Source: a virus
Taxonomy: Duplodnaviria > Caudoviricetes
Reading direction: 5' to 3' (one strand)
Length of the DNA stretch: 59,424 nucleotides
IMG/VR virus record: IMGVR_UViG_3300048772_000090
Span: 1 to 59,424 of that record
Made by a program: the position numbers and the translations under genes. A model generated the notes under the pieces. It was given only the letters and a program-made list of their open reading frames with translations, did not search any database and was not told the DNA's origin. Shown piece by piece: positions 3,339 through 51,899 of the stretch (the first letter of the stretch is position 1; each line of letters starts with the position of its first letter).

Positions 3339-3346
3339 TTATTATC

Positions 3347-3376
3347 TTGACACTCCGTATCCGAGTATGCAATAGT
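3347..3376 (+). promoter_or_regulatory. sigma70-like promoter (TTGACA-18-TGnAATAGT)
   Basis: Same architecture as 1364-1393. Confidence 0.5.
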
Positions 3377-3615
3377 AGTCGTGGGAGAAATAAGATGAGA
3401 CAGTTTGGAATGTTTGGCGAAGGCGAAGATTACTGCAAGCATGACAATGTACGCGGTTATTGTTCTGAGTGCAGAGCCGAAAAGGAACGGGAAGAGAAGC
3501 AGAAAGCGCATGAATCTTCCGTTGCCAAACAGCGACTCAGATTGAAGGTTCTAGATCGTAGCAATATCGTATCAGGTAAGTAAACGCCATAAAACTTATT
3601 TCCGGGAGGAAGAAA

Positions 3616-27934: not shown

Positions 27935-29326
27935 TTACTGCTGTGCTTCGTGCTGCTGGATAAAGTCGAGTGTTGCTTCTGAAAAACCATCCACATGTAG
28001 CCACTCACCATAGCCGATGCCATTACGGTCTGCACCGACGTTGATGAGGTAGTTATTCTTACCGAACGGCTTTGCGCTCGATGGCTTATTCACCAAGTCG
28101 CAGTCCTGCTCGTCCGTAAAGACCACGATACGGTCGGCGTCTGATTCCTTCTCCCGCAGCACGTCAATCACTTGCTTGAGGAAGATTCCGCCGCCGCCAA
28201 TTGTGTGACACGTCTTCTCATATGAGAGCAGGTCGCGGAGTCCGAATCCCCTGCGCGGAGGAATCAGCATCGTAGCGTGCTTGCGAGCGCAGTCGTCTCC
28301 AGCGGTTGCGTAGATTACTACGTCTTCGCAGACCTCACGAAGCAGCATTGCCAAAGCCGCAGCCGCACTCAGCCTATCCAGTTCGGACTTGCCAGAGATT
28401 TGACCGTGCATCGACCCAGAGCAATCCACAACTAGCACGGTCTTACCTGCCAGTTTAGGTTGACCCTCAAGGCAACGGAACATCGCTTGCTCCAACTCAG
28501 GCTCCAACTTTGGCGCATACTTCGCCGCCGTAATGAACCGGAAAGGAAGAACGCGCTCCGTCCTCATATTCGTCAAAGCCCCGCGAATAACCGACTGATC
28601 CACCTTCGCTTCCTGCATATTCCGCAGGTTGCGAAGCAACGCCAGAGCACCAAGCTGATTCTCTTCGATGAGACGAGTAAACGTCGCCTTCTTATCCTTA
28701 CCAGCCGACAGATTCGACTCCCAAGTGTCAGGAGCCGTCAACTTGTTCTCGGCCAGTTCCTTCCAGAGTGCCGTCTGCTCATCGTTCTGAGGCTTTGCAT
28801 GGACGAGGAAGAGCACGTCGCGCATGGCTACTTGGCCATCCCGGTTCGCGTACTTGCTCAAGGAATATCTGTCGAACTTCTGGAATGCCGCCGCTAGACC
28901 CTTCTTCATCTGAGCCGTCAAGGGCTGCTTTCCGTCCTTCCAGTGCATCGCAATAAGCTCGGCCATCTCGTCAGGACGCTGCACACAGGAAGCGATTGCA
29001 CCTGATACGACAGCGCGAGCCTCTTCCGTCTTGGCGCGGATCAGTGCAACGATAAGCCAGAGCGGGGCATGGCGCAGCTTGAACTTCGTCCGCGCCTCAT
29101 ACGCGATGTTACCGACGATCCCCGCACCATCCTTCAACTTCAGGACAGCAGCAACTTCATCGTGGATGCGCTTGGCAATCTCGACACCCTCTTCGTAGAA
29201 AGTGCCCTCAAAGAGCATCGTCGCCATCACAGAGCGGCGAAGCTGTTGAACAGCGTTAATGCGAACGGCTACCGCACCCTCATGGGTGTGGATAGGCGGA
29301 GTCTTTACGGCGACGTTGGTACGCAT
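27935..29326 (-). CDS. Ro60/Rsr-like TROVE domain protein with vWA domain
   Basis: THEGAVA, FEGTFYE, TWES, ALLRNLRNM, LPFRF, vWA MIDAS VVDCSGSM and VFTDEQ. Confidence 0.92.
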   Translation of the reverse strand: MRTNVAVKTPPIHTHEGAVAVRINAVQQLRRSVMATMLFEGTFYEEGVEIAKRIHDEVAAVLKLKDGAGIVGNIAYEARTKFKLRHAPLWLIVALIRAKTEEARAVVSGAIASCVQRPDEMAELIAMHWKDGKQPLTAQMKKGLAAAFQKFDRYSLSKYANRDGQVAMRDVLFLVHAKPQNDEQTALWKELAENKLTAPDTWESNLSAGKDKKATFTRLIEENQLGALALLRNLRNMQEAKVDQSVIRGALTNMRTERVLPFRFITAAKYAPKLEPELEQAMFRCLEGQPKLAGKTVLVVDCSGSMHGQISGKSELDRLSAAAALAMLLREVCEDVVIYATAGDDCARKHATMLIPPRRGFGLRDLLSYEKTCHTIGGGGIFLKQVIDVLREKESDADRIVVFTDEQDCDLVNKPSSAKPFGKNNYLINVGADRNGIGYGEWLHVDGFSEATLDFIQQHEAQQ

Positions 29327-29388: not shown

Positions 29389-29526
29389 TCGGTCGGAACA
29401 TACGCCTACGGTAATTTTACGTGCTCTACCACTGAGCTACGCTTCGCGGTGACCCGAAAAGCGGAAGGATTCGAACCTTCGTCCTCGTCCTTAGCATGGA
29501 AGTAACCGTAAACTTCACCAGACCGA
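29389..29526 (-). ncRNA. YrlA-like Y RNA 1 (tRNA-mimic domain)
   Basis: Terminal stem TCGGTC/GACCGA; T-arm GAAGG-TTCGAAT-CCTTC precedes D-arm TAGCTCAGTGGTAGAGC (permuted order typical of YrlA); next to the Ro60 gene. Confidence 0.85.
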
Positions 29527-29534
29527 ACATCTAA

Positions 29535-29666
29535 GAGCCGAGAACATTCGTAACAATCTCCCTTGCGGGAATCTTGCCTTACCAATTAGGCGAGTAGTTA
29601 GATTTCTCTAACCCCATTGGAATTGAACCAATAATAGAGATGTAATTGTTACTACCACTACGGCTC
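29535..29666 (-). ncRNA. YrlA-like Y RNA 2
   Basis: Terminal stem GAGCCG/CGGCTC; T-arm TTGG-TTCAATT-CCAA then D-arm GCCTAATTGGTAAGGC; shares TAC.TC and TGTTC motifs with RNA 1. Confidence 0.75.
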
Positions 29667-29683
29667 GTACTTATAAAACTTTT

Positions 29684-29763
29684 GTCGAAGGAACAAGCGA
29701 ACTCGGAAGGTGCCCGAAGGCTTTTCTGTTCAAGAGAAGTATCCGAACTCTTCACCATTCGAC
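29684..29763 (-). ncRNA. short Y-RNA-like RNA lacking the tRNA domain
   Basis: GTCGAA/TTCGAC stem with the same TGGTGAAG, TACTTC and TGTTCC motifs as RNA 1. Confidence 0.65.
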
Positions 29764-29784
29764 AAAACTTGTACTTCTAAACTT

Positions 29785-29910
29785 CGCGAAGCAGACGGGA
29801 GTCGAAACCCGTAGGAGTCATTAAAAGTGGCCCCTGTCACCATCCAAGAGAGACTTTCGAAAGTCCGTCTCGTCAACCTGCAATCTGGGTATCAGCCAGA
29901 AGGCTTCGCG
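29785..29910 (-). ncRNA. unknown tRNA-like structured RNA
   Basis: 8-bp terminal stem CGCGAAGC/GCTTCGCG, 3' T-arm-like ACGGG-TTTCGACT-CCCGT, three internal hairpins. Confidence 0.5.
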
Positions 29911-29952
29911 CTATTCCCCGCCGTCGCGGGAAACTCAAACTCAACATTCACA

Positions 29953-29981
29953 ACTCTAAGCGCAGTTCTAAAACTTGTCAA
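29953..29981 (-). promoter_or_regulatory. sigma70-like promoter of the Y RNA-Ro60 unit (TTGACA-17-TAGAGT)
   Basis: Perfect -35 with 17-nt spacer. Confidence 0.65.
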
Positions 29982-30015
29982 GCAAAATCTGCGCTTTATT
30001 TCCACAAATCTAAAA

Positions 30016-30634: not shown

Positions 30635-30706
30635 AAAACTGTTAGGCCGTTCAGTCGCATCCAGAAGGGATATTCATTGATCCCTGCGCTTACTAGACCC
30701 GTAAAA

Positions 30707-30945: not shown

Positions 30946-30946
30946 A

Positions 30947-31024
30947 TGGTCCGAAGGACGAGACTCTAACTCGCTAGGAACGGCTTGAAGGGCCGCTTGC
31001 TCGATACACTTTGCATTCCTTCGG
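30947..31024 (-). tRNA. tRNA-Glu(TTC), C33, atypical D/T loops
   Basis: GCGGC-CCTTCAA-GCCGT; acceptor CCGAAGG/CCTTCGG; CCA. Confidence 0.65.
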
Positions 31025-31032
31025 ATAAAAGA

Positions 31033-31270: not shown

Positions 31271-31364
31271 TGGTACCGGAAGAGGGAATCGAACCCGTCT
31301 AGCATCGGTTATCGACCGACTATATGAGGAGTATAAGGCCCCGCTGTGTCCTACACTTTCCGGC
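31271..31364 (-). tRNA. atypical tRNA-like RNA, probably Ile(TAT), with a long extra arm
   Basis: Acceptor GCCGGAA/TTCCGGT-ACCA and TTCGATT T-loop; tiny D-arm; loop CTTATAC; extra arm GTCGG-TCGATAA-CCGAT. Confidence 0.5.
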
Positions 31365-31961: not shown

Positions 31962-31971
31962 AAACTTTTAT

Positions 31972-32061
31972 GAGGCGGCTTCATGCTACCCGGTCTAGCC
32001 GGACACGTGACCCGCTCTGACTGGCCCGGAGTTTCCTCCGCGTCTAGGCAGCGACCGCCTC
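31972..32061 (-). ncRNA. unknown multibranch structured RNA
   Basis: Terminal stem GAGGCGG/CCGCCTC; internal CGGAG-GAAA-CTCCG and CCGG-CTAGA-CCGG. Confidence 0.45.
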
Positions 32062-32077
32062 TGTAGTCACTCAAGCA

Positions 32078-32186
32078 TGGTCGGGTTTGCGAGTCTGCCA
32101 GTCTCGCACTAGAGCGCCCCATGCGCCCCGTGCTTTGATCCGTCCGTCCCGAAGGCTCTGGATCAGGCCGTTTACACTAGCACCCG
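32078..32186 (-). tRNA. atypical tRNA-Pro(TGG)-like RNA with a hairpin inserted in the D-loop
   Basis: C1-G72/A73 Pro-type end CCCGACCA; GGGCG-CATGGGG-CGCTC; TGATCC...GGATCA insert; 9-nt T-loop. Confidence 0.5.
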
Positions 32187-32194
32187 GTAAATGA

Positions 32195-32792: not shown

Positions 32793-32902
32793 AAATCTTA
32801 ACCGGAATCTCTCTTCCGCAGTCACGCCACTAGACTCGCTGCTCGGACTTTCCGAGTGTGCTATACCCCGGACGGGGTTACGTCGGGCAGGTGTCGCCCA
32901 TT

Positions 32903-33971: not shown

Positions 33972-33982
33972 TCAATCCTTGC

Positions 33983-34000
33983 TATTCAGTTGTCAAACTC
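33983..34000 (-). promoter_or_regulatory. boxA-like antitermination element, operon 2
   Basis: GAGTTTGACAACTGAATA resembles rrn-spacer TTTGAAAACTGAATA; no -10 at promoter spacing. Confidence 0.5.
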
Positions 34001-34120
34001 CCGATCCCACTAGGGGCGGTGAAACGAAACTTTGCGACGGTGGCTATAACCTGCCCGCTGCCACCGCCGAAGTCCACGTCTGTAGTTAGCGGCCTACCTA
34101 CTCCGGGTCGTATCAAACTT

Positions 34121-34197
34121 TGGCTCATCAGGTCGGCCTCGGACCGACATCCCCGAAATTAACAGTTTCGTGCTCTGCCTACTTGAGCTACCGATGA
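34121..34197 (-). tRNA. tRNA-Asn(GTT)
   Basis: CGAAA-CTGTTAA-TTTCG; G73; CCA. Confidence 0.85.
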
Positions 34198-34207
34198 ACA
34201 TTACTGC

Positions 34208-34296
34208 AAAACTTTGGGGTCACCAGATTTTCTCCGGTGACCCCATCTACTGCTCGCTGTTTTATAAATGTCAGTCGAGAGAAGGACGGCCACCGG
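34208..34296 (-). terminator. attenuator 2: antiterminator CCGGTGGCC/GGTCACCGG versus hairpin GGGGTCACCGGA-GAAAA-TCTGGTGACCCC-AAAGTTTT
   Basis: Mutually exclusive stems; the U-tract is imperfect. Confidence 0.7.
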
Positions 34297-34369
34297 GCGC
34301 ATGATTACCGCGCGGCTGTGCTTGCGTTGCCGCTGGGGTAAAGGTTCGCGTTGTGGCTGCGTTCTTCAT
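34271..34369 (-). CDS. leader peptide 2 MKNAATTRTFTPAATQAQPRGNHAPGGRPSLD
   Basis: ATG a few nt after the predicted TSS; codons 3-29 all encode amino acids of the downstream tRNA set. Confidence 0.8.
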   Translation of the reverse strand: MKNAATTRTFTPAATQAQPRGNHAPGGRPSLD

Positions 34370-34381
34370 GTCTCTTTTGTC

Positions 34382-34410
34382 AATGTACCCGCGTTGAGAT
34401 TATTTGTCAA
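34382..34410 (-). promoter_or_regulatory. promoter of tRNA operon 2 (TTGACA-17-TACATT)
   Basis: Near-consensus sigma70. Confidence 0.75.
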
Positions 34411-34417
34411 CTGCTAT

Positions 34418-35078
34418 TTACCAGATTCCGCGAACATAGTCCTTGTAACGCCAACTCTTGCCAGTAATGTGGTCGTTTACGTCCCCGTCCTTCACGCGGA
34501 TGGTACGGCGTTTGTCGCCACGCTGTCCACTTCCAACCTGCTTCTTCCTATCGGCTGAAATGCTCCCGTGCCTATGTTCCTTATCGGCAGCGAACAGTCT
34601 TGCGGTCAGGATCGCTAGAGCAATATCCTTGTTCCGCTTCTGTGATCGCTCGTCTTCGCAGCGAACCGTTAGGCCCGTAGGAATATGCTTGAGGATGACG
34701 CAGGTTTCGAGTTTGTTGGCGTTCTGTCCGCCCTTGCCTCCTGAACGGGTAGTGGAGTATTCCAGATCGTTAGGGGATACAGAAAATTCGTATGGCTGTG
34801 GTTCTGGGAAGGTAGCGACCGTAACCGTAGAGGTTTGGACTCGTCCACTACGCTCTGTAGGCGGGATTCTCTGCCATCTGTGGCCGCCTGACTCGTTAGC
34901 AAATATCTTCTCAACTCCCTTTCCGGTAACTCGGAAAACAACAATTCCCGGTCTTTCCTCAGTCAATTCGAGGTCAAAGCCCCCTCCGCTCCGCAAGTTT
35001 TGTGTAGATGCGGAATTGGTCGATCACAAGTAATTTAGCATCCATTCCTCCCTCAGCAGCCCTAATCTCAATTATCAT
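34418..35078 (-). CDS. short class-I peptide chain release factor (lacks domain 1), expressed through a +1 frameshift; join(35078..34977, 34975..34418), about 219 aa
   Basis: AGGAG RBS; MIIEIRAAEGG (RF domain 2 start) in frame 0; ESGGHRWQRIPPTE...RVQTS, GGKGGQNANK, RSQKRN and RGDKRRT in frame +1; junction CGGAGG-GGG-CTT-TGA-C. Confidence 0.88.
34973..34988 (-). promoter_or_regulatory. prfB-type programmed +1 frameshift signal
   Basis: Internal SD GGAGG, 3-nt spacer, CTT TGA C; same layout as the RF2 signal AGGGGG-TAT-CTT-TGA-C. Confidence 0.88.
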
Positions 35079-35228
35079 TTCATTTCTCCTATTCGCGTCA
35101 GGATAAAACCCGAATGGCCCCATTTCTGAGGCCACTCGCGGCTCGTGCAAGGACATTATGTACGCAGGCACAATTAGGAGCGGTACGCTCCCTGGTTGAT
35201 GCGGCCTTTCGACCGCGAGATAAGCATA

Positions 35229-35579
35229 CTATTCACATGGGGTTAGGTCAAGGTAATAGTTCTTACCCGGAACAAACGTGTCGCAGACATCGGGATTATC
35301 AACAAGGAACGTCATGGTTCCGCTTGGCGTTGCGGCAGCGAAACTAACATCCTCTGGATTACTTGTGTCGTACTGCGCGGCTAACCGCACGTTCTGAGCA
35401 AACTTTCCAGTAGAGATGTACTTGACTTTCTTACCATTATCCGTGTACTCAGTTCCAACCAGAGCAGCATAGTCCTCCGGCGTTACTGAGTCCTCGAAAA
35501 CTCGCTTTGAAACGGCGTTGTCAGTCAGCTCTACGCTAACCACACGGAACTTGCAGCGGGTACGAATCGCTTCTGGCAT
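35229..35579 (-). CDS. hypothetical protein
   Basis: AGGAG RBS; RCKFRV...FAAATPSG...PGKNYYLDLTP. Confidence 0.75.
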   Translation of the reverse strand: MPEAIRTRCKFRVVSVELTDNAVSKRVFEDSVTPEDYAALVGTEYTDNGKKVKYISTGKFAQNVRLAAQYDTSNPEDVSFAAATPSGTMTFLVDNPDVCDTFVPGKNYYLDLTPCE

Positions 35580-35675
35580 AAACTCTCCTAAATTTGGTTG
35601 GGAAGCACCGCTATGCTTGCGGCATCACTGAGCCACGCCAAGGTTATCCTGCGGCTCACATGGACAGCATAACAT

Positions 35676-35714
35676 AAAACAGCAATGGCTCCCACTTAAG
35701 TTGAGAGCCACTGC
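35676..35714 (-). terminator. intrinsic terminator closing the ncRNA cluster
   Basis: GCAGTGGCTCTCA-ACTTAAG-TGGGAGCCATTGC-TGTTTT. Confidence 0.7.
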
Positions 35715-35742
35715 CGGTCGTGCCTTCTATTTATAGGAAATC

Positions 35743-36789
35743 TTTGCAGCGGGTCGGATTCCTATACCGGCATGGCGGTCTGCACTAGGTGATGCCTCTT
35801 TCGAGGGCTTATGCTGGCTCTCGCTGCCGCGTGGGTTTCTCACCCATCCGCCGAACTGCTAATCCCTTCCGGGACTCGGACGACCTAGCCAAGTTAGCGG
35901 GTTCCTCCCCGCCGCCACTGCAAACTTTGCCCGTTCGTATTGAACGGAGCCGAAGTCACCAACAATCGAGTGCTGGACTCCTACTCCGATCTCTGCGCCA
36001 CCCCATCTTGGGTACTCGCGTCAGGATTGCAGATCGTTTCGCTTGGAATTCTTTGCAGCGTTCTGCTCTCTCGTTACTCCTCGCGGCGTCTAGAAGCTAC
36101 CGATTCTGGAAGACCGAACACCTCAAAAGAGTGGAGTCTTGGGGTCTAAAGGAGTGTCCTACCACTCTTCCGCTGCAAACCTTTGAGGCGCGGCTCCGAT
36201 TCTGGCTAACCAGTCACCGTTTTATCCTTTGCGGGAGAGACCTGTCAGTTCCGCCTCAAACTTTTCCCGTCCCAAACCGATAAGAGAAGGTGGCCCCTCG
36301 GACGGCCACTAACCGCCCATTCTCTCCGGCTCGACTTAGCAGACCGATAAGGCGTTCTGAACAGCCTCCGGCCCGCGACAGGAAACTTTATAATCCCCTA
36401 AAATGTGGGGCCGTTCGGCCTTGCAGATACTAGGCTTCGACCGATCTTACAGCTTATTATGGACGATCAATCGGCTTGGCGTCCAGCTATTACCTCTCCA
36501 CCGTTCTCTTCCTACTAGGCCCCTTCGTCGGGGGTATTCTAAAATCCAGCGGCGTTGCGTCATTGTCGCTGCGAAAGTATGCCTACGTTCGCGTTCTCGG
36601 ATGGCCCCGGATTTCTCCGTCTGACGCTATCCCTGATGTTTGCTTGCCGCTGAAACTCAAACTATGCTCGTCTTTCCGAGCCGCCAAGGGACGTTACCGT
36701 TACCCTACGCGTCTTTCCGTGTCTCGTCACTCCCGTTACTGAGGACGTTTTGAATGGCCGTCTATGAACGTGAGTCGAAGTCTCCCAGC
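35743..36789 (-). ncRNA. tandem cluster of at least six unknown structured RNAs
   Basis: No RBS-supported ORF; consecutive units closed by 7-11-bp terminal stems, several separated by the AAAGTTT-type spacer also seen after tRNA CCA ends. Confidence 0.6.
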
Positions 36790-36797
36790 CAGATCAA

Positions 36798-36867
36798 TGG
36801 TTGCGCAGGGAAGAGTTGAACTTCCGTCCTTGGCCTTATGAGAGCTAGGCATACCGCTATCCGCGCA
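36798..36867 (-). tRNA. 70-nt tRNA(CAT)-like RNA with a reduced D-arm
   Basis: Acceptor TGCGCGG/CTGCGCA-ACCA, loop CTCATAA, T-arm GGAAG-TTCAACT-CTTCC. Confidence 0.55.
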
Positions 36868-36878
36868 GGACAAATATC

Positions 36879-37460
36879 TCATCCTGCGCCAACGATGTCA
36901 AGTGGTATTTTATAGAATATGGTGCGTTGAGCAGGAGTCGAACCTGCGGTGTTTGCTCGTAGAGTCACAGATTTACAGTCTGCTGCCTTCGCCACTGGGC
37001 CACCAACGCATAACTTTTCATATTTCTTTGGAGAACGACGTTTTTGCCGACACTCCCTGCAATCTGTTTCAAGTCCTCTACGCTTTGACCTATCCTTCGT
37101 AAAATCTCCAACTGGAAGCCAATCCTGATGCCCATAACACCATGCCATTCCGGGAGGATCAATGCGTCTCAAATGGGCGTTGGCGTCCATTGCTCGGAGA
37201 TCACGTTTGGTTTTCTCTAAATGGCAACCGTGACAACGTGCTTTGCATTTCTCCAATTCTTCCAATCTTTTAGCATCACCCCAACTCCATACAGTGTGGC
37301 TCACTTTTGTCGAAGGATCAACATGATCTAGTTCAAGATTGTCCCAAGTCCCGCAATCCACACATGGACCGTTCTCTGCAAACCACTTTCTCCTACGTTC
37401 TTTGACGACTCGCTCATACCACGCCTTTTGTGCTGCCTTCCACTTCACCATATCTCTCAT
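36879..37460 (-). CDS. HNH endonuclease; the reading frame runs through tRNA-Tyr
   Basis: CVDCG..NLELDHVDP...CHGCH plus a second CYGH/CREC zinc finger. Confidence 0.8.
   Translation of the reverse strand: MRDMVKWKAAQKAWYERVVKERRRKWFAENGPCVDCGTWDNLELDHVDPSTKVSHTVWSWGDAKRLEELEKCKARCHGCHLEKTKRDLRAMDANAHLRRIDPPGMAWCYGHQDWLPVGDFTKDRSKRRGLETDCRECRQKRRSPKKYEKLCVGGPVAKAADCKSVTLRANTAGSTPAQRTIFYKIPLDIVGAG
36920..37009 (-). tRNA. tRNA-Tyr(GTA)
   Basis: GCAGA-CTGTAAA-TCTGT; long variable region; CCA. Confidence 0.9.
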
Positions 37461-37466
37461 GGCGGA

Positions 37467-37495
37467 AGTATACAGCTATAACGGCGGAAATACAA
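37467..37495 (-). promoter_or_regulatory. promoter for a leaderless HNH transcript (TTGTAT-17-TATACT, ATG 6 nt downstream)
   Basis: Spacing places +1 on the A of the ATG at 37460. Confidence 0.55.
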
Positions 37496-37511
37496 CAACT
37501 AAACACATTAA

Positions 37512-37604
37512 TGGAGGAAGAAGCGAGATTTGAACTCGCGGTGCCGGTCACCCGGACACTCCCGTTTTCAAAACGGGCGCTTTAGACCACTCAGCCATCC
37601 TTCC
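37512..37604 (-). tRNA. tRNA-Ser(TGA)
   Basis: CCCGT-TTTGAAA-ACGGG; long variable arm; CCA. Confidence 0.9.
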
Positions 37605-37608
37605 AAAC

Positions 37609-37694
37609 TGGCGGTAGGGAAGCGATTTAAACGCTTAATACCTTTCGGTATGCTCGGTTTCGAATCGAGGTGTCCCATCAATGACAGCCCTACC
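37609..37694 (-). tRNA. tRNA-Ser(CGA)
   Basis: Loop TTCGAAA; long variable arm; atypical D/T loops; CCA. Confidence 0.75.
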
Positions 37695-43521: not shown

Positions 43522-44451
43522 CTACTTCACCTGCTCCACAGGGATAAACCCTGAACGTCCGTTGGGCGATTCCCCCCTATTGCAACACCCACGGTAGATA
43601 CAGGGAATAGGCCACGAGCAGGTACTAAATTGCTGTGGAGGGGCTGTTTTTAGAGAATAAATCTCCTCTAGCCTCCTTGCCGCTGTGTCCACAATCATCT
43701 GCCTAGCTCTTGGTTCTGGAACCTGAATATCTACGTTAAATAGACTGTCCTGAAGAACTCCGTCATCCAACATTGCCTGTAGCCAAGTTTCGGATTCGAT
43801 CTCGTCTCTATCTTCCCTGAAAATCGTATTCCACGATTCCTTGAAATTGGTTCCTACATTATTTCTTTTCCTGAACCGCAATTTTTTATTCGCGGGATGT
43901 AAAACGCCTTTGCTCCAATATCCATGCCTTTTCCCGTCTCGCCTTGCTCCTAGCACGCAAACCACTTGCTGCATCGGGAGTCCATAGGCGCAGACTTCTC
44001 CTAGCGAATACCAGCTACGCGCCTCGGAATAGTGCCTATCGTCAGACCAGTTGGTGACTAGGCAAACCCGGCGCAGTTTTGTCCCCGAAGGATCGAGATA
44101 TGCACTTGATTTCCATATCGTCCCGTTGTCCAATGGAATTTCTTTAGCAGTTTCCCACGGCTTATCGTTGGGTTTTCTGAGGGCGGTTACGATCAAATCA
44201 CAAATGTGAGCGATGTGAATTACCTCATCGTAAACATTTAGGCTGTCCGTTCTCAATCCCGGTTCCGCTCCTAGCGCGATAGCCTCTTCTCCAGCATATT
44301 CCCCGTAGTTCTTCTCAGACGTGCAGAGTCCAGCGTTGATGCACTTCTGCATAAACTGGTGCTCGTCAGGTTTTCCTTTTTCCCAATCGCGGCTCCAGAA
44401 TCCATCACGATTGCAATGCTCATAGGCGGAAAGGATAAAAGGGCTGTTCAT
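43522..44451 (-). CDS. hypothetical protein, possibly Cas4/PD-(D/E)XK-like
   Basis: N-terminal EHC and C-terminal CSWPIPCIYRGCC suggest an Fe-S staple; catalytic motif not evident. Confidence 0.45.
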   Translation of the reverse strand: MNSPFILSAYEHCNRDGFWSRDWEKGKPDEHQFMQKCINAGLCTSEKNYGEYAGEEAIALGAEPGLRTDSLNVYDEVIHIAHICDLIVTALRKPNDKPWETAKEIPLDNGTIWKSSAYLDPSGTKLRRVCLVTNWSDDRHYSEARSWYSLGEVCAYGLPMQQVVCVLGARRDGKRHGYWSKGVLHPANKKLRFRKRNNVGTNFKESWNTIFREDRDEIESETWLQAMLDDGVLQDSLFNVDIQVPEPRARQMIVDTAARRLEEIYSLKTAPPQQFSTCSWPIPCIYRGCCNRGESPNGRSGFIPVEQVK

Positions 44452-47400
44452 TATGGGATCATCTTCGTTGGGTTGCGCCTGTTGGCTTCGGCAATTAAAT
44501 CCTTAATGTTGCTCACCTTCCGCTGAGGGTTCAACCCCGCTGCCAATACCTTCAACTCAGACAACGGCAGGATTCTCTTCGTAACCACTGGTGTAACACC
44601 CATAGTTGTCTGTAGAGGCACAGAAACTTGTGCTGTAGTTTGATGGGGAAGGATAGTGTGAACCTTTATCACAGGCACCACAGGTATTTGTATGGGAGCG
44701 GCGGCTAACTGCGTACCGCCTTTGATCGGAATAACAGTAGTAGGGGTAGTTCCCGTGCTACCCCCTACTGGCTCTGGGATTCCCGCACCTCCTATTGAAT
44801 CAGTATTTGACTCCAAACTTGATTCTTGTCCTGCCGCGCTAGGAGTAATCCGATCCTCTAGGATTCCTGACTCGGACTCTCCTTTTCCTCCGGCCCCCAC
44901 TCCTTCTGAGCCTGCTCCCGAATCGCCCTGATCCCCTTCAACGCCTCCTCCTTCGGGAGTCCCGCTAGGGCTAGGAACTTCTTTCTCCTGTCCGCCACCT
45001 TCTTCATATCCAGGGAATTCAAGTTGAACAAGGTCTCTGCTTCTCCTATTGCTTTCATGTCTTTCTGCCGCCTCTCTTAGTGCATCTACATACTTCTTCC
45101 CTGTTGGGTCTATCGTGTTGAGTTTTTCTCCGTGATGTGAAGTTTGGGCTTTAAGACTCTCCCACATCAACTCATCAACCTCATCTTCAGTGAAAAGACC
45201 AAGCCTATTGAACTTCCCAGATAGACCAAACGCTTCCGATTCCGCAGCCAGCAACGCTCTATCGTTCCCGTAATGTTTCAGTGCGTACCATGCTTTTTGC
45301 GCTATCATCCTTTTCGCTAAATCATCAGTTACAGATTTAGGAAACAGTGTCAACGGATCGCCATCTCCAGACACAACCCGTTGACCAGCATGAACCATAG
45401 CCTCATGCTTTTCCAGTTCTTTTTGTTCTTCTGGTCTGCGATTAGGGTCAACAGTAAGTATCGGAACTCCAGCATCCCCATTATCGTTTGCTGCCTGCAA
45501 AATATGGGAAGCTATCTCAATGGCTTTATTCTGTTCCTTTCCAGATAATCCAAGAGAATGACTAATCAACTTCTGTACTAGAACATAGGCATTCTGGGAG
45601 TCTAAATTCCTTCCGTTGCTTTCAATTTTTACGCCCGATAATTTATTTACAAGTTCGTAGTCGTCTTTGGTTAGGTCAACAATTCCTATTGACCCCGTAT
45701 CCACCATACTGCGGTATCCAGTCTCGGTAGGAATCTTGGTTTGTTCGTAATCCGACTTCTCCCTGTTCCGCAATATGTTCGGATCGTTGGGGTCGAAGGA
45801 ACCTGAATTACCGATTGCAGATTTGATCTGAGTAGGATCGAAGGCAATGTAGCTTTCTCCTTCCCCCTCGTACTCGTTTGGGTAAGTAATTCCATCATAT
45901 CCTTTCGACTTCAGGTATTCGCGTATCAATTTGAACCGCTGCGCCCGTTCGTTCGCGCTACCTGTGTGAGCAGAATTCTTGTCAGACTCATCCATCCGAC
46001 TCAATAATTCTTTGGACTCTGGCTCTGAAATAACCTTGTCCTTTACCAGTTGCCCCAGAAGGCTTAACCGTCCAAAATATCCCGGATCAGCACTAAGGCG
46101 AATAGGATTATTGATACGGATGTATGCAGGAATAATGTTTTCACCAAGGCGTGGCTTCCCGACCGAACTATCAAGTCGCTTGCTGGCCTGTTCCGCCGTG
46201 CCAAAATGTGAACCTAACTCTCCTCCGGTAAATTCATCGAACTCCTTATCTGTACCGTGATAAAGAACCATCGGTTCTCCATCTTTGTCCACGACTTTAC
46301 TTTCGCCGAAGAATTTCTTGAACTCAGGAGTTTTCGTTTGTTCCCTATTAAATAGGATATTGGAATTCTTAGGATCAAACGTGCCCTTATTACCGATGGC
46401 AGACTTAATCTGAGCAGGTTCGAACGCTACCCATGTGTCAGTGTTTTTTGCATCCCCTTGTGAATCATCGGTAATAATAGCTCCGTCATAACCCATTTCC
46501 TTAGCGGCCCTGACAAACTCTTTTCCATCCTCGTCGTCAAACAGTTCCCAAGTGTGCTGCGTCCCATTCGTTATCCATCGTGGGTTTACGCCATGCGCTT
46601 TGAAGTCGTCTAAAGTGTCCTCATCGAGCGTAGATTTTCCACTCCGCAGGTCGAGCGGAGATTTAATATTTAGATAGACAGGGATAGTCTTCCCGCCCGT
46701 CTTTGGCTTAGAATTTGGCGACTCAGGATCAATCACAAATTCATTGGCAAACTCAGGAGACTCGGCTAGGAATATGCCGTGCCTATTTGTCTCGTATGAT
46801 CCAAGCACATTTGAATTGAATGAACCTCTCCCTACCTCAAACTGATTGAAGTCTCCAGAAGTGGAGTGGTACAAGACTTTTGGCGTACCATCTTTATTTA
46901 CTGCCATCGAAACAGGAGGCTTACCCTCCTCACGTTTAGAACTAAATGCGTTAGGGTCTTCCCAATCTCCAAACCAGTTCTTAAATTCAGGCTTCTTGGT
47001 CTGCTCACGGTTGAACAGCGGGTCTACTTTCTTTTGTAGTCCACCATCAGTCCTTCTATCGGTACTGGAGGCTCCGCCATCCGGTTTCGCTTCTGAGCTA
47101 GTTCCTTCAAGGCTTCCTTTCCCCCCGCCTTGTACGCCGCCCATACCTCCTCTATCTGCTTCATTTCCCGATCCATTTCCTTTTGCATTGTAGTAATCCT
47201 CCTTGACGTGACGTGCTGGTGTAGTAATGTGCTTTAGCTGATCTAATGCGTCCTTGCCGTGAGTCTTTTCAACTAACTCAAAGTATTGGAACAGATAATT
47301 AGCCCATTCGTCTTCACTTAATCCTAGCGCCTTCGGGTTGTCGGCAATCATTTTCGCCGCAGATTCCAGTACGCGATATTTGTTGGCTATCTCCGAACCG

Positions 47401-50400
47401 TCATCATCCTTGTAATCGTTTTTCTTTAAGTAATAGCTCATCGCGGCAGGGATAGCAGCATTCAGTTTCTTGAACTCTATTTCAGGGAGATGCTTCCCTG
47501 CTTCCACTTCAAATCGCTTTTGCCATGTATGCCCTAACTCCTCGCGCAGAGTAGCTAACGCTTCGCTAAGGCTCTGTCCTTTTTCGGGAACCATCGCTAT
47601 CGTTACGCTACCTTTATCGTCTAGTCCTTGCGTGATTAGTTTCTTTATCTCCCTCGAATGAGGAGATTTATATTCATCCAAGTTTTTGAATACCTTGCTA
47701 AGGCTTAGATTGTCGAGTGAAGCCCCATTTATTGAAAAGTTAGGGCTGTAGGATGAGCCAAACGCTTCATGTAGGTCATCCGACCCCTTCCGCGTCAAGT
47801 AAACCACCTTCGTCTTATCGGGAAGCTGGCGCACCTCTCCTATACTCTTGTTCTTTAGGTAGCCAAGTCTCCTCTCCAGTGCCTTGATGTGATCTTCGTT
47901 ATATCCGTAATCTCTATTCCAATCTTCTTTATCTTCGTTCCACGCCGCTCTCTTTTCTGGAGTGCTAAGGTCTGGGTTTGTGGGAAGTGGGTTCCTGTGA
48001 ATAATGTCCTTTGTCGCATCCAACTGTCCCTGCACATCGTCTATTTCTTCCTGATCTGCGTCAGGACTCTTGTAAACCCGGTTGAATAGCTCATCATTCC
48101 CACGCTCATGCCAGTAAGATGGTGAAGCGTACTTCGCAGCCGCTTCTCCTACTCGCTGCCATTTTTCCAGTCCCAATAGGACTATATCAGCACCACCAGA
48201 GATGCTCTTTGGTGCCCTATTATTCGCAGGGGTAAACTCAACAGTGAAATCCATGCCGGGGAAGGATGCAATCGTCTTTCTTACGCGACTCAGTACATCG
48301 TTATCTATCTTCCCAATCTCAATATTCATCCCACCGTAGGCAGGACGAATCCTTACTCCTCCTGCGGCGAACAGGTCAGCGTAGTCCTTGTATCCGTTAT
48401 CCTCCATTAGTTCGTAGTGACCTTCGCCAACCTTTACCTTCCCATCTCCGGTAATGATTGCGGCACTATTTGGCGTTCCCATTACGGCTTTAGGATCAAG
48501 ACCCTCTAGTTCCTTGTAGGGCTTCTCCTTATTGAAGAGGGTATCGTCGGGGGAAATAGTTCCTTTTCCGCTAGGAGATACGCCTTCCGCTGGTAGTTGT
48601 GGAGACTTATACTCCTGCGCTAGCCTATTCCTGTTCCCGAACGTGTTGATTGCATCCGTGAGCATCCGTGCTCCAGATGTTTGGGTTCGTACAGTGTCCA
48701 TTGGCACTACAGGAACAGGACGACGCGGAACTCCAGCCTTGCGATCCTCTAGTATTTTTTCACTCGTGGCCACACGATCTTGTAGTTCCTTGCGGTAGGC
48801 ATCCGTGAGAGACGGACCTGTAGCCTCCTGTGTCATCTTTCCGTCAACCATCTCAAGGCCCATAAATCTACCAGCCGTGAGCATCTTATTCGCTTGTTCC
48901 ATGTCTCTTTTTAGCTCAAAATCACTCTTATCGTAGATGTGATCCTTCGCCATGAAGACTTCATTTACATAGTTGTGGGCAGGAGAATCAAGCACGTCTG
49001 CCGCTACCGATGCTGGCATTACGTGACGCGCTCCGTAGGTGTCCTTAAGCACTAAGGGAAAGTCTCCATCCTTCGCGACTAGGCCACGAATATCGTCTCC
49101 TGTACGAAGACTACCGCCATTCCTAGCTACATCCGACCATGTTCCATAGATCGGTCTCTTTGGCTCTGGAGGAGCAAGTTCTACAGCCTTCGTGGTGACG
49201 GCAGGGCGCGGCTCAAGAGGAGACTCAAAGAAGATTTTACGAATTGACGGCGGAGCGGACGAGGACATTGGATTTGCTATTTCGTCTGCAAAATGATCCG
49301 CAATACGCTCTTCCAACCCCCCAGTATGTTCGGCGTGGATGTATGTTGCACCTGTAACGTATCTATCAATAATTGCACGGTTCTCAGGCGTCAAGCGACG
49401 GTAAATATCGTGGGCTACTTCATGCGCCAACGTATGAGTTGGATTAGATGCAGCCGCGTTTACGGCTATCTTACCTGTCTTCGGATCAATGTTCCCTTGT
49501 TCTGACAAATCAAACTTGTACGGCTCTTCAATCGAGAATCCACTGATTCCTGTCCGCTTGAACTGCTCATGCAGCAAAGGATTCATGGACGCATCGCGCC
49601 ATGCGGACTCCATCTCTTTCGGCGGAGGAAACAGTACATCCACGTTCACGGAAGGGACTTCTACTCCATCTTCCTGCAAAGGGATCGTTAGAGACGACTT
49701 GAATTTATCGGCATCGTCCTTTACTTTTTCGCGGTTGAAGGCTGGCTCTCCTGATCCCTGATTAGCTTCAGCAGCCCCTCCTTGCCGCCCTGCTGCCACG
49801 CTTGGAAGTGCGCCGCCATCCGTTCCGTTTGCGTCAACTCCTTCGGGCGGAATAGGAATTCGTGCAGCTTGCGGAGTATTCCCATCTACTTCTTCCGCTC
49901 CTGATCCAGCTTGGCTTCCTGCTCCGTTATGAACTTGCTCAGCCCCTCCCGCCCCCCGTCCAGAAAGGCTTTGAAGTGGGCTACCATCAGGTCTGTTGTT
50001 GGCCAATCCTGCATTGGTTCCGCTGGTTCCTTGTTTTCCTGTGTTTTCGGCATATACTTTCTCCTTTACGTCCCTTGCGCCATCGACAAGATGAGTAAAT
50101 ACATCCAGTGCTTGTGCGCCGTGTTCCGCAGCAATCTCAGTGAAATAATCCGTTAGGAATTTTGCCTTCTCTTCTGGCGTAACTCCAAAGTCTGTAGACT
50201 TTCTTCCCATTAATTTGGCCGCTGCTTCTGTCACCATTTGGGGAGAGTTAAATTCATCGTAATCATTATTCAGCAAGTGATCGTACATTCCTTGCGGAAT
50301 ATTTCTCCTTAAGTGGCTAAAGACTCCGGGCTTCAGAACGTCATCAAAAGTTCCATTTGCCGACAGTTGGCGTTGGTGAGTATGAATGAGTTCCTCACGC

Positions 50401-51899
50401 ATAACATTTACGGCGTGCTGAACTCCCCTTCCAGTTTTGGAAGCGACAGCCGCACCACCAATACTTGTCTTCCTATGAGCCTCCGCCAACAGTTGTTGCA
50501 CTTCTGGATGAGCAGCGGCAAGCGTTGGATCGTTAGCGAAGGTATGGAGAAGATCAGTCGAAAGATTGAATCCGTGAGTTGACGCATGGTTCTCTTTGGG
50601 ATACATCGTGTTCATCAAAGACTTCCAAGCATCAGGACTCAACCAAACAGACGGAGCCTGTCCCTTTGCTTGTCGTACCTCTCCTGCCGTGTTGCGATGC
50701 AGGACATTCGTCCTGTCGCGGCTAGGAGCAACAACTACAGGCGTAAAAGGATGATCTGTAATCGTCCTACCACCCATTACGTCTCCAGCCCCTTCAGTCA
50801 GCCCTTGCCTTGCACTCTCTGCGAACGATGGAGCCTTCCCTCCAGCCAGATGTTTTGCTGCCATTCCAGCCATTGCCCCATCAATGAGGGCTGAGGTAGC
50901 CAAAGCCGCTGCCTTCTCGTGATCGCCCGCTTGGTACGCTTTCCACGCCTCTGGAGTATCATGGATCACACCCTGAGCCATCTGAACGCCAAAGAATAGG
51001 CTCACAAACTTCGACTCTGGGATCAAAGCCATAACAGCAAGTTGATCCACTCTACTCAAATCGGACAGTTTATCCCTAGTCGCTCTCTGGACAGCCCCCG
51101 CAATTCCGGGTTGCGTCTGCACCCAGTTACGCTGCAATAACTCTTTCTGTTGAGTAGACAGCTTTGTTGGGTCAAAGTTACCTTTGGATGCCGCACTACT
51201 CAATGTGGCAACCTGATTCTTCTCCTCTGTGGTCAAAGGTTTGTCCTGTGGAAGTAGGCGAGGGAGATTTTTGGCCCATCTAGCAGATTGCTCCCTCTGT
51301 TTTTCGCCCTCGGCCTTCACCCCAGACAGGACATAAGCCTCTGCGGTGTCTGACTGTACTCCGGGAAGGAGCATATCAAGTAAACTCTTTGTGTGCATCG
51401 GTACAGCCTGAGCATTCAAGTCAGGATGAGCGGATGGTTGCCCAATGTTTGGAGCAACGTAAGTGATATGTGATCCTGCCCGCTGTGCCTTTATCTCTTC
51501 TCCGATAGTCTTAGGCTTCGGTGCATTCGGGACTGAGGCAAGGGTACTCTGCGCTCCTGCGGCTTGGTTGGCAGGATTGTACGTCGGCTTGATAAGCGGT
51601 GAAAGTCTTGCGGCAGGAGCACTAAAGGCGTCCGCTCCTTCGGATACAGGGGCATCGGCTACTCGCTGTTTCTCCTTCGCCAAGAACTGGTCTAGTAGAG
51701 GAGATTTGGTTAATAGGTAGCCCTTCGGGGTGACTACTGGAGTTCTCTTCGCAGCCTCTAATTTCAGGTCTTTAACCGTCTTCTTGGGCGCGGAAGGACT
51801 CTTCTTAGACGACAATAAGCTATAGCCAGCAGGAAGTTTCACCTCTGGCCCAGCAGTAATTGGTTCGCCGTCGTCATCGAGATATTGCTTTGGAGCCAT
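44451..51899 (-). CDS. large polyvalent (probably virion-injected) protein with two ART-like domains and zincin-like repeats
   Basis: Two T.EFK.(W/F)FG...LYH(S/G)T...GYDG...AF.P.QIKSAIGN.G.FDP units, HEVAH motif, repeated REEL.HT units. Confidence 0.8.
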   Translation of the reverse strand: MAPKQYLDDDGEPITAGPEVKLPAGYSLLSSKKSPSAPKKTVKDLKLEAAKRTPVVTPKGYLLTKSPLLDQFLAKEKQRVADAPVSEGADAFSAPAARLSPLIKPTYNPANQAAGAQSTLASVPNAPKPKTIGEEIKAQRAGSHITYVAPNIGQPSAHPDLNAQAVPMHTKSLLDMLLPGVQSDTAEAYVLSGVKAEGEKQREQSARWAKNLPRLLPQDKPLTTEEKNQVATLSSAASKGNFDPTKLSTQQKELLQRNWVQTQPGIAGAVQRATRDKLSDLSRVDQLAVMALIPESKFVSLFFGVQMAQGVIHDTPEAWKAYQAGDHEKAAALATSALIDGAMAGMAAKHLAGGKAPSFAESARQGLTEGAGDVMGGRTITDHPFTPVVVAPSRDRTNVLHRNTAGEVRQAKGQAPSVWLSPDAWKSLMNTMYPKENHASTHGFNLSTDLLHTFANDPTLAAAHPEVQQLLAEAHRKTSIGGAAVASKTGRGVQHAVNVMREELIHTHQRQLSANGTFDDVLKPGVFSHLRRNIPQGMYDHLLNNDYDEFNSPQMVTEAAAKLMGRKSTDFGVTPEEKAKFLTDYFTEIAAEHGAQALDVFTHLVDGARDVKEKVYAENTGKQGTSGTNAGLANNRPDGSPLQSLSGRGAGGAEQVHNGAGSQAGSGAEEVDGNTPQAARIPIPPEGVDANGTDGGALPSVAAGRQGGAAEANQGSGEPAFNREKVKDDADKFKSSLTIPLQEDGVEVPSVNVDVLFPPPKEMESAWRDASMNPLLHEQFKRTGISGFSIEEPYKFDLSEQGNIDPKTGKIAVNAAASNPTHTLAHEVAHDIYRRLTPENRAIIDRYVTGATYIHAEHTGGLEERIADHFADEIANPMSSSAPPSIRKIFFESPLEPRPAVTTKAVELAPPEPKRPIYGTWSDVARNGGSLRTGDDIRGLVAKDGDFPLVLKDTYGARHVMPASVAADVLDSPAHNYVNEVFMAKDHIYDKSDFELKRDMEQANKMLTAGRFMGLEMVDGKMTQEATGPSLTDAYRKELQDRVATSEKILEDRKAGVPRRPVPVVPMDTVRTQTSGARMLTDAINTFGNRNRLAQEYKSPQLPAEGVSPSGKGTISPDDTLFNKEKPYKELEGLDPKAVMGTPNSAAIITGDGKVKVGEGHYELMEDNGYKDYADLFAAGGVRIRPAYGGMNIEIGKIDNDVLSRVRKTIASFPGMDFTVEFTPANNRAPKSISGGADIVLLGLEKWQRVGEAAAKYASPSYWHERGNDELFNRVYKSPDADQEEIDDVQGQLDATKDIIHRNPLPTNPDLSTPEKRAAWNEDKEDWNRDYGYNEDHIKALERRLGYLKNKSIGEVRQLPDKTKVVYLTRKGSDDLHEAFGSSYSPNFSINGASLDNLSLSKVFKNLDEYKSPHSREIKKLITQGLDDKGSVTIAMVPEKGQSLSEALATLREELGHTWQKRFEVEAGKHLPEIEFKKLNAAIPAAMSYYLKKNDYKDDDGSEIANKYRVLESAAKMIADNPKALGLSEDEWANYLFQYFELVEKTHGKDALDQLKHITTPARHVKEDYYNAKGNGSGNEADRGGMGGVQGGGKGSLEGTSSEAKPDGGASSTDRRTDGGLQKKVDPLFNREQTKKPEFKNWFGDWEDPNAFSSKREEGKPPVSMAVNKDGTPKVLYHSTSGDFNQFEVGRGSFNSNVLGSYETNRHGIFLAESPEFANEFVIDPESPNSKPKTGGKTIPVYLNIKSPLDLRSGKSTLDEDTLDDFKAHGVNPRWITNGTQHTWELFDDEDGKEFVRAAKEMGYDGAIITDDSQGDAKNTDTWVAFEPAQIKSAIGNKGTFDPKNSNILFNREQTKTPEFKKFFGESKVVDKDGEPMVLYHGTDKEFDEFTGGELGSHFGTAEQASKRLDSSVGKPRLGENIIPAYIRINNPIRLSADPGYFGRLSLLGQLVKDKVISEPESKELLSRMDESDKNSAHTGSANERAQRFKLIREYLKSKGYDGITYPNEYEGEGESYIAFDPTQIKSAIGNSGSFDPNDPNILRNREKSDYEQTKIPTETGYRSMVDTGSIGIVDLTKDDYELVNKLSGVKIESNGRNLDSQNAYVLVQKLISHSLGLSGKEQNKAIEIASHILQAANDNGDAGVPILTVDPNRRPEEQKELEKHEAMVHAGQRVVSGDGDPLTLFPKSVTDDLAKRMIAQKAWYALKHYGNDRALLAAESEAFGLSGKFNRLGLFTEDEVDELMWESLKAQTSHHGEKLNTIDPTGKKYVDALREAAERHESNRRSRDLVQLEFPGYEEGGGQEKEVPSPSGTPEGGGVEGDQGDSGAGSEGVGAGGKGESESGILEDRITPSAAGQESSLESNTDSIGGAGIPEPVGGSTGTTPTTVIPIKGGTQLAAAPIQIPVVPVIKVHTILPHQTTAQVSVPLQTTMGVTPVVTKRILPLSELKVLAAGLNPQRKVSNIKDLIAEANRRNPTKMIP

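Follow-up and report, generated by a model that had tools for sequence, protein, structure and literature searches.

The RNA unit within the tRNA island

The locus described here belongs to an uncultivated peat-bog phage and was analyzed over the whole of its IMG/VR virus record (IMGVR_UViG_3300048772_000090; 59,424 bases, completeness estimate 63%), which we call the window. The stretch was recovered in 20 public-run rows from 15 studies of peat, wetland, lake, and freshwater samples. ARAGORN finds 34 transfer RNA (tRNA) genes over the whole window, all on the minus strand between 30016 and 38403. They cover 20/20 amino acids, and CCA is encoded by 34/34. The widest tRNA-free gap within this island holds a non-coding RNA unit of ~1.2 kb (36901-35680, minus strand), which has a promoter-like site at one end and a terminator-like hairpin at the other. 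The unit starts with an atypical CAU tRNA-like gene, which is followed by eight stem-closed modules in the order a, b, c, U3, U4, U5, g, and U6 (Table 1). An initial annotation had described the region as a string of structured RNAs laid out like a tRNA array, and its position inside an island of 34 minus-strand tRNAs agrees with that description.

Table 1 Features of the RNA unit and its surroundings. Positions refer to the window, in which all modules listed are present; z-scores compare folding stability with dinucleotide shuffles; the last two columns give the state in the relatives L044 and L049
Feature	Positions	Strand	Description	z-score	L044	L049
Predicted sigma-70-like promoter	36873..36901	-	TTGACA, 17-nt spacer, TG-extended GATATT; 10/12 matches			
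Atypical tRNA-like gene	36798..36868	-	CAU anticodon-like loop, 7-bp acceptor stem, T-arm, encoded ACCA		present	present
Module a, 137 nt	36661..36797	-	two hairpins with common GAAAGA loop	-1.13	absent	absent
Module b, 117 nt	36539..36655	-	closing stem CAGCGG/CCGCUG; GAAA tetraloop hairpin	-4.67	absent	absent
Module c, ~150 nt	36386..36538	-	CCCC/GGGG and GGGGCC/GGCCCC terminal stem around internal loop	-1.19	present	present
Module U3	36261..36385	-	Y-shaped; CCGGAG/CUUAUCGG helix with AU bulge in both arms	-4.94	present	present
Module U4, 79-81 nt	36180..36260	-	closing stem UUUGAGGCG/CGCCUCAAA	-1.85	present	present
Module U5, 128 nt	36051..36179	-	closing stem UUUGCAGCG/CGCUGCAAA	-0.75	replaced	present
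Module g, ~125 nt	35925..36050	-	three hairpins	-1.61	present	present
Module U6, 182 nt	35742..35924	-	closing stem UUUGCAGUGG/CCGCUGCAAA; GGAA and GAAA tetraloop hairpins	-1.52	present	replaced by ~576 nt
Intrinsic terminator-like hairpin	35680..35716	-	15 pairs, then UUUUAUGUU (U-tract)			
ORF116	35579-35229	-	directly downstream of RNA unit			
PrfH-like release factor, 192 aa	34418-34996	-	RF-1 and end of PCRF domains, GGQ			
HNH endonuclease genes (two)	inside tRNA island	-	domain search			
YrlA-like Y RNA	29402..29512	-	RF02553 33.9 bits, E 8e-5, gathering score 69; T-arm and D-arm intact			
Ro60/Rsr gene	27935..29326	-	TROVE and vWA domains; Pfam TROVE 50.6 bits; phrog_850 2e-41			
Contig X15	36216-36742		RNA-library contig			
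Contig X16	36055-36538 joined to 36656-36805		RNA-library contig			
Contigs X17	35774-35924 and 36253-36535		RNA-library contigs			

A metagenome scan with ORF116, the open reading frame (ORF) next to the unit, gave the relatives L044, L045, L046, L047, L048, and L049. L044 equals L045 across the region, and L046 is slightly different. The promoter-like sequence, from which a start at ~36868 is predicted, is kept in L044 and L049. The terminator that had been placed after the region was found as a terminator-like hairpin, and L049 has such a hairpin at the same place with an altered loop. Within the unit, there is no minus-strand ORF of at least 40 amino acids (aa) except one that overlaps the promoter, and a 164-aa plus-strand ORF is disrupted by a module swap in L044. 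The earlier view of the region as non-coding is upheld, as it holds no credible minus-strand ORF.

The tRNA-like gene at the head of the unit reaches 26.2 bits with the Rfam tRNA model against a gathering score of 29, and ARAGORN calls it only when relaxed. Copies lie at L044:1848-1919, where the T-loop is non-canonical, and at L049 ~1476-1547. Identity among the three sequences is 61%, but the CAU loop is conserved and the variable pairs are kept in 11/11 cases, ten of which are changed on both sides and back the acceptor, anticodon-like, and T stems. A D-stem was not found when the window, L044, and L049 were compared. Two candidate explanations for the gene are an armless tRNA and a tRNA mimic.

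Folding of the modules

With revised boundaries, all eight modules are more stable than their dinucleotide shuffles (z < 0, mean -2.21), and for b and U3, 0/100 shuffles were equally stable. As a control, 40 coding windows of 130 nucleotides (nt) from the same phage gave z-scores of 0.01 ± 1.09 (Mann-Whitney p = 6.7e-5 vs the modules). Measured against these shuffles and coding controls, stem density in the region is higher than in shuffled sequence, as the initial annotation had supposed. The folding energy of the whole region is -394.1 kcal/mol on the minus strand and -352.0 kcal/mol on the plus strand.

The division into stem-closed units, which had been proposed with stem strings that turn out to be minus-strand reads (the strand was unstated), stood in part. 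Four units (35743-35924, 36052-36179, 36182-36260, and 36263-36385) are closed in minimum free energy folds, and three of these four are backed by relatives. A further unit at 36407-36608 did not hold, as its strands fall in two modules: the 5' strand lies in b, and the 3' strand pairs inside c in relatives. We rejected it because b has its own CAGCGG/CCGCUG stem and is absent as a whole in the X16 contig, L044, and L049.

Module a: The two hairpins with the GAAAGA loop reported earlier are present (CGGAAAGACG at 36719-36710 and 36678-36669). The copy in the X16 contig has two substitutions, both of which are compatible with the GACG/CGUC hairpin.

Module c: The terminal stem is taken from the consensus fold. 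Four G/C tracts allow two alternative pairings: one gives two local hairpins, with U-rich sequence after the second, and the other gives two long-range helices, one nested in the other. From these modeled pairings, c could be a conformational switch.

Module U3: The tip of the second arm is hypervariable, with a different tip stem in each of three relatives, and the base helix is kept. Three pairs are changed on both sides among the relatives, and two G.U pairs have become A-U in the X16 copy.

Module U4: The hairpins are UCCC-GCAA-GGGA and CUGGUU-AGCCAG-AAUCGG. The closing pair of the GNRA loop is C.A in the window vs C-G or U.G in relatives.

Module U5: One hairpin pair changes from A-U to C-G in L049 and X14.

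The words AUCGG (6 copies) and UCCGAG (3 copies) are mildly enriched in the region. No antisense targets of at least 15 nt were found elsewhere within the window.

Selection on structure

For the substitution test, the folds of the window sequence alone served as reference and are, therefore, independent of the variants. Variable columns make up 11/462 paired and 22/296 unpaired positions (Fisher p = 0.0015). Variable pairs are still able to pair in 9/10 cases on the minus strand vs 4/9 on the plus strand. In module g, 4/4 variable pairs are kept by single-sided changes, and 0/39 pairs are broken. Identity to the relatives is 97.5-98.8% for U4, 98.4-98.7% for U6, 96.9% for U5, 94-97% for g, and 93-96% for c. 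These values are above the 85-91% at the third codon positions of the PrfH-like gene and ORF116 and the 80-92% of neighboring spacers. Mosaic recombination could inflate the module identities in comparison with third-codon positions.

Exchange of modules among relatives

In L044, the slot of U5 is taken by an unrelated 81-nt unit with a similar closing stem, plus ~230 nt. The replacement (L044:2345-2460, plus strand) also contains two mini reading frames (9 and 8 codons), both of which follow a strong Shine-Dalgarno-like GGAG. In L049, the U6 slot holds a permuted (two-piece) transfer-messenger RNA (tmRNA) at 2342-2749 on the plus strand (RF04321, 63.2 bits with a gathering score of 47; ARAGORN tag ADTFALPLAA), with the same AAG-UUU flanks as the U6 slot. 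The X16 contig keeps a and lacks b exactly (36539-36655; position 36538 is joined to 36656), and the deletion is flanked by the similar linker words UUUGAG and UUUUAG. U5, U6, and the L044 unit have common flanks, AAAG(G)UUUGCAG(C/U)GG ... C(U/A)CUGCAA, around unrelated interiors. L048 retains only the 3' part of U6, which is 98.7% identical, next to an ORF116 homologue with just 60% identity.

A pattern scan for the twin helix of U3 gave three matches, one of which is real and two of which are chance matches in coding sequence. The real match is in G039, a complete 61.8-kb phage with one tRNA. Its block of 393 nt (locus L086, reverse strand 3213-3605) is 100% identical to L049; it begins in the T-arm of the tRNA-like gene, continues with c, U3, and U4, and ends 15 nt inside U5. 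ORFs of 1065 aa and 131 aa flank the block, which stems either from a transfer in the recent past or from a chimeric assembly. A TROVE gene (Ro60) was not found in G039. The earlier proposal of independent units rather than one large RNA is supported by a, b, U5, and U6, which are lost or replaced as wholes. c-U3-U4 occur together in 4/4 contexts (window, L044, L049, and G039) and may be one RNA.

Further searches gave no additional homologues. Among 50,697 phage records, BLASTN found no match to the region, and a sensitive BLASTN against 42 loci anchored on Ro60 or PrfH gave only two chance-level matches to the tRNA-like gene. The common motif pattern of U4 and U5 had 23 matches in viral contigs, roughly as many as expected by chance, each of which lay in coding sequence or in an unrelated context. 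A 23-nt string of U6 had 0 matches in viral contigs. The ORF116 relatives in viral contigs (L002-L004) are without tRNA arrays.

Linkers shared with the tRNA genes

The modules are joined by ...CAAAG-UUUG..., the same AAG-UUU linker as between the tRNAs (enrichment P ~1e-10 to 1e-12). On the minus strand of the island, AAGTTT occurs 20 times, where the remainder of the record would predict 3.1 (P = 1.4e-10). The more specific pattern AAAG.?TTT is found 15 times vs 1.09 expected on the minus strand of the RNA island, five times vs 0.14 in the module unit. The AAAG-UUU linkers noted earlier are, therefore, present far above chance. In ~10/34 tRNAs, (A)AG-UUU follows directly after CCA. RNase E has the in vivo core motif RN|WUU, cuts near tRNA 3' ends, and frees a sponge RNA from a tRNA operon (PMC5222698). 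The linker AG|UUU is compatible with this motif.

Comparison with known RNA families

We searched Rfam 15 (4227 models) at the gathering score over the window and at E-values up to 10 over 34100-37600. At the gathering score, the whole window gave only tRNAs (24 matches). Inside the region, 6S, signal recognition particle (SRP) RNA, RNase P, self-cleaving ribozymes, HEARO, and other Rfam families had no meaningful match at E up to 10, and the sole match in the region was to a mycobacterial sRNA model on the plus strand (16.6 bits vs a gathering score of 72). For GOLLD (RF02032, conserved 3' domain; gathering score 150 bits), the best score in the record was 4.1 bits at 16546-16558, outside the region. 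ROOL (RF03087, 574 positions; gathering score 99.1 bits) had no match at E up to 10; control genomes were equally without a match, so this result says only that a hit is absent. YrlA (RF02553) had no match within 34100-37600 at E up to 10. Hence, the description of the region as structured RNAs of no known family agrees with the Rfam scan, which included GOLLD, ROOL, 6S, tmRNA, SRP, and ribozymes.

Relaxed ARAGORN runs gave no credible cloverleaf or tRNA-like domain in the modules. No tmRNA was found in the window by ARAGORN or Rfam, tools which do detect the L049 tmRNA; relaxed ARAGORN gave implausible tags. The L049 tmRNA shares only matches of 8-14 nt with modules a and b, as does the L044 replacement with the window. 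Resemblances to SRP domain IV, the CR-V region of RNase P, and the sarcin-ricin loop were contradicted by the Rfam scans and dropped. In a keyword literature search, we found no description of such modules, of their exchange with reused stems, or of a tmRNA in such a slot.

RNA-library coverage

Contigs from RNA libraries of three studies (X15, X16, and X17; contigs, not reads) cover or bridge parts of the unit, and transcription of the unit is plausible. Near 36527-36538, 36055, and 35924, the contigs end where strains have breakpoints, and these positions are uninformative on RNA ends. Island parts that X16 leaves uncovered (e.g., the ORFs at 34212-35746) count as no evidence, and contig depth is unfit for ranking genes.

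Ro60 and Y RNAs in the window

Downstream of the tRNA island, the phage encodes a Ro60/Rsr protein, whose only solved relatives are the Ro60 structures of the Thermus phage phiLo (9kop and 9l5y, E 5e-19). At a distance of 76 nt, a YrlA-like RNA precedes the start codon of Ro60, and an X16 RNA-library contig spans 29392-29546. As the YrlA model matches there, the canonical Y RNA of the phage is placed at this site and not in the module unit. Between tRNA-Gly and YrlA (29520-30015, minus strand), there are further stem-closed units with AAG-UUU linkers. The unit at 29679-29766 (minus strand) begins with UUUGUCGAAUGG and is a candidate for a YrlB-like RNA on account of the GNCGAANG motif at its 5' end. 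Over 30268-29336, including 29520-30015, the identity to L005 is 86%.

The motif GNCGAAN0-1G has been tied to Rsr binding by Chen et al. 2014 (PMC4201824), and a layout with CGAA in a bulge was used in finding Yrl1/2 of phiLo (PMC12135203). Chen et al. 2014 also take a distance within ~4 kb of the Ro60 gene, on its strand, as a criterion for Y RNAs and report Ro60-bound RNAs that were missed by the authors' own bioinformatic search. In module c, the 5' strand of the internal loop carries GACGAAGG at 36529, which matches the motif and is kept in L044 and L049. Altogether, c has three such motifs vs 0.12 expected (a post hoc count), two of which are kept in L044 and L049. A motif near the 5' end occurs in c only; there is none in a, b, U3, U4, U5, g, and U6, and the enrichment over the whole unit has P = 0.07. 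An end-to-end stem with a large internal loop, one of the criteria for Y RNAs in the broad sense, is predicted for c, U4, U5, and U6. Measured from the start of rsr (29326), the unit is 6.4-7.5 kb away in the upstream direction, on the same strand but beyond the 4 kb of the published criterion. The link of the unit to Ro60 is weak overall because the unit is separate, more than 6 kb from rsr, and without a YrlA-like domain and because G039 is without Ro60. By its modeled fold, module c alone looks like a Y RNA.

Other features of the island and the record

The PrfH-like gene has relatives in 26 viral loci (L018-L043), 17 of which have at least one tRNA gene within 6 kb; large arrays are common. 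A tRNA-like sequence of 94 nt that is called by neither Rfam nor ARAGORN lies at 31271-31364 (minus strand). It has the acceptor stem GCCGGAA/UUCCGGU, a T-arm with GGGUUCGAUUCCC, an extra arm that is long, and ACCA. Two tRNA-Ser genes flank an 86-nt unit at 37609-37694 (minus strand), in which a 7-bp closing stem, GGUAGGG/CCCUACC, is followed by GCCA, so that it has a tRNA-like end without a cloverleaf. Other ORF-free, GC-rich island spacers of 70-230 nt on the minus strand (31962-32194, 32793-32902, 33972-34120, 30946-31032, and 30635-30706) are structured in appearance, and most are bounded by an AAG-UUU-type linker. Elsewhere, a single ORF of 2482 aa is found at 44451-51899 (minus strand).

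Discussion

We favor reading the unit as an operon of independently folding and independently exchangeable RNA modules, which lies inside a tRNA island and shares its punctuation. In our judgment, this reading is evenly balanced between right and wrong. The stretch from ~36868 to 35680 on the minus strand would be one dedicated non-coding transcription unit, started from the predicted promoter and with the CAU tRNA-like gene first. Its eight modules would each fold alone behind a terminal stem and behave as independent genetic cassettes. Host tRNA-processing nucleases would cut the primary transcript at AAG|UUU into several stable small RNAs. Since c-U3-U4 always travel together, they may stay joined as a single RNA of ~370 nt. 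Still more tentatively, the released RNAs might be protein-binding RNAs or decoys, and a decoy or tether role is a guess. They would work alongside the tRNA set, the PrfH-like factor, Ro60 and YrlA, and, in the relative, tmRNA. Any function is suggested by the genomic company only, whose parts would sustain translation and RNA quality control.

Such an operon could be taken further, to an RNA cassette array. The reusable GCAG(C/U)GG...CC(G/A)CUGC stem and AAG|UUU would present interchangeable inserts, which host tRNA-processing enzymes cut out. The inserts would be fast-evolving decoys or tethers, directed at Ro60 and other factors of translation or RNA quality control or at host nucleases with tRNAs and ribosomes as targets, and phages would trade them like tRNA and tmRNA genes. 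We consider this full version unlikely.

Several observations speak against an operon of independent modules. Taken singly, six of the eight modules are weakly significant (z -0.75 to -1.85). The consensus folds of the modules have 11 variable pairs kept (4 changed on both sides) and 7 broken, several of the latter being mismatches particular to the window, and covariation is thin among relatives that are 89-98% identical. Breakpoints fall inside modules and not at linkers in L086 (15 nt into U5) and L048 (3' part of U6). The distribution is narrow: BLAST of 38 whole records of Ro60 or PrfH phages gave no homologue, only chance matches of 17-35 nt, and a covariance model of U3 matched in 1/42 records (G039). 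The UUU leader of a module can pair with the AAA trailer, which leaves 1-2 unpaired bases between helices and makes the linker a poor single-stranded RNase E site. Finally, the RNA-library contigs span module junctions (U5-U4-U3-c), and those of X15 and X17 reach a similar depth over ORFs, which leaves room for DNA carry-over or an unprocessed precursor.

Some of these points would fit one large, multi-domain ornate RNA of ~0.6-1.1 kb that acts as a whole and has variable peripheral domains, similar to GOLLD or ROOL. A single promoter and a single terminator, both predicted, bound the region, few bases are left between the closed helices if UUU pairs with AAA, and the contigs bridge U5-U4-U3-c. 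Several GNRA tetraloops are present (GCAA in U4, GGAA and GAAA in U6, GAAA in b), and c-U3-U4 always co-occur. The 5' region of GOLLD is variable, and one GOLLD example is found downstream of a Met-tRNA (PMC12286853); the unit here begins with a CAU tRNA-like gene. However, neither GOLLD, ROOL, nor another Rfam family matches, the modules at the start (a and b), center (U5), and end (U6) can all be lost or replaced, which leaves no invariant whole, and c-U3-U4 stand alone in G039. We give such an RNA a small chance. The free presence and absence of modules among near-identical strains could also mean that they are non-functional filler. RNA genes in decay (tRNA, tmRNA, or others) and scars of recombination would then have built up in a fast-shuffling tRNA island, with linkers that are only inherited junctions serving as microhomology. 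The narrow distribution, the fragments with intra-module breakpoints in L048 and L086, the deletion of b between similar words, the two HNH endonuclease genes in the island, and the weak z-scores of single modules are in line with this. Decay is, however, at odds with modules that are more conserved than neighboring third-codon positions, with substitutions that avoid paired columns and keep 9/10 pairs on the minus strand only, with the stability of b and U3 far beyond their shuffles, and with a promoter-like site and terminator-like hairpin that are kept in relatives. Remnants of cloverleaves or tmRNA were not found in the modules beyond 11-nt chance-level matches. We regard filler as rather improbable.

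The presence of a Ro60 gene on the same strand raises the question of whether the modules (or c at the least) serve phage or host Ro60/Rsr as additional partners of the Y-RNA type, in which a terminal stem bears a Ro-binding motif and variable loops tether other proteins. The long stem of c and its large internal loop with GACGAAGG, together with two further motifs (two of the three being kept in L044 and L049), agree in layout with the published bacterial and phage Y RNAs (PMC4201824 and PMC12135203). In U5, U6, and the L044 unit, the GCAG(C/U)GG closing stem surrounds unrelated interiors, as in Y RNA paralogues, and Ro60-bound RNAs eluded the bioinformatic search of Chen et al. On the other side, rsr already has a YrlA-like RNA 76 nt upstream with further units adjoining, and the module unit is 6.4-7.5 kb away with its own predicted promoter and terminator, compared with the published 4 kb. 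The region has neither a YrlA model match nor a tRNA-like domain, the motif enrichment is post hoc with P = 0.07 for the whole unit, and G039 has c-U3-U4 without a TROVE gene. Such a role is improbable in our view. Lastly, as the unit immediately precedes ORF116 and the PrfH-like gene in the same orientation and the G/C tracts of c can pair in two alternative ways, it might be a long cis-acting leader or attenuator. Yet a strong terminator-like hairpin stands between the unit and ORF116, the ORF116 homologue in L048 retains only the 3' part of U6, c-U3-U4 adjoin unrelated genes in G039, and 1.1 kb is well above the length of known leaders. We consider a leader very improbable indeed.

The proposed operon of RNA modules can be compared with several known systems. 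GOLLD and ROOL occur near phage tRNA islands, as the initial annotation had stated and as PMC12286853 bears out. Like the unit, they are unexplained phage RNAs of hundreds of nt that are highly structured and have variable regions. In contrast, the domains here are individually closed, joined by tRNA-type linkers, lost or swapped as single modules, and without a model match. The leuZ 3' external transcribed spacer (3'ETS) sponge resembles the proposal for the unit in being a non-tRNA RNA that is co-transcribed with tRNAs and freed at RN|WUU (PMC5222698). RNAs of this type are short, largely unstructured host trailers, whereas the unit has eight structured phage modules. The phage two-piece tmRNA fills the U6 slot in L049 between the same AAG-UUU flanks, but the window modules match neither the tmRNA model nor ARAGORN and have only an 11-nt similarity to it at chance level. 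The tRNA cluster of phage T4 yields unexplained stable non-tRNA RNAs, species 1 and 2, which are matured from tRNA precursors. Those are two RNAs vs a promoter-to-terminator string of eight here.

Y RNAs (YrlA, YrlB, and Yrl1/2) are, like the modules, small structured RNAs with a 5'-3' closing stem, come from Ro60 phages, and lie on the same strand. They often adjoin tRNAs, and tRNA enzymes act on YrlA of M. smegmatis (RNase P, CCA addition). The GNCGAAN0-1G motif is common to Y RNAs and the stem loop of module c. Y RNAs measure 80-130 nt vs up to 182 nt for the modules, which are without a YrlA match or a T/D-arm domain. The unit also differs in being more than 6 kb from rsr, in its predicted separate transcription, and in the occurrence of c-U3-U4 in a phage without Ro60.

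GOLLD, ROOL, and Y RNAs are earlier examples of unexplained structured RNAs from the tRNA islands of phages. The modules here fall outside the described families, and the keyword literature search gave no paper with a cassette-like exchange that reuses closing stems or with a tmRNA that is able to take one slot. The locus thus adds a compact predicted operon of about eight unfamiliar structured RNAs to the RNAs of tRNA islands, and module c is a concrete candidate for a Y-like RNA outside the usual 4-kb neighborhood of Ro60. Should the modules be junk, the locus still documents how RNA islands are shuffled when whole modules are exchanged at the microhomology of linkers. Provided that the modules are set free and have a function, tRNA islands would serve in general as platforms for releasing small effector RNAs, and the modules would be several new RNA families with candidate roles in translation takeover or counter-defense.

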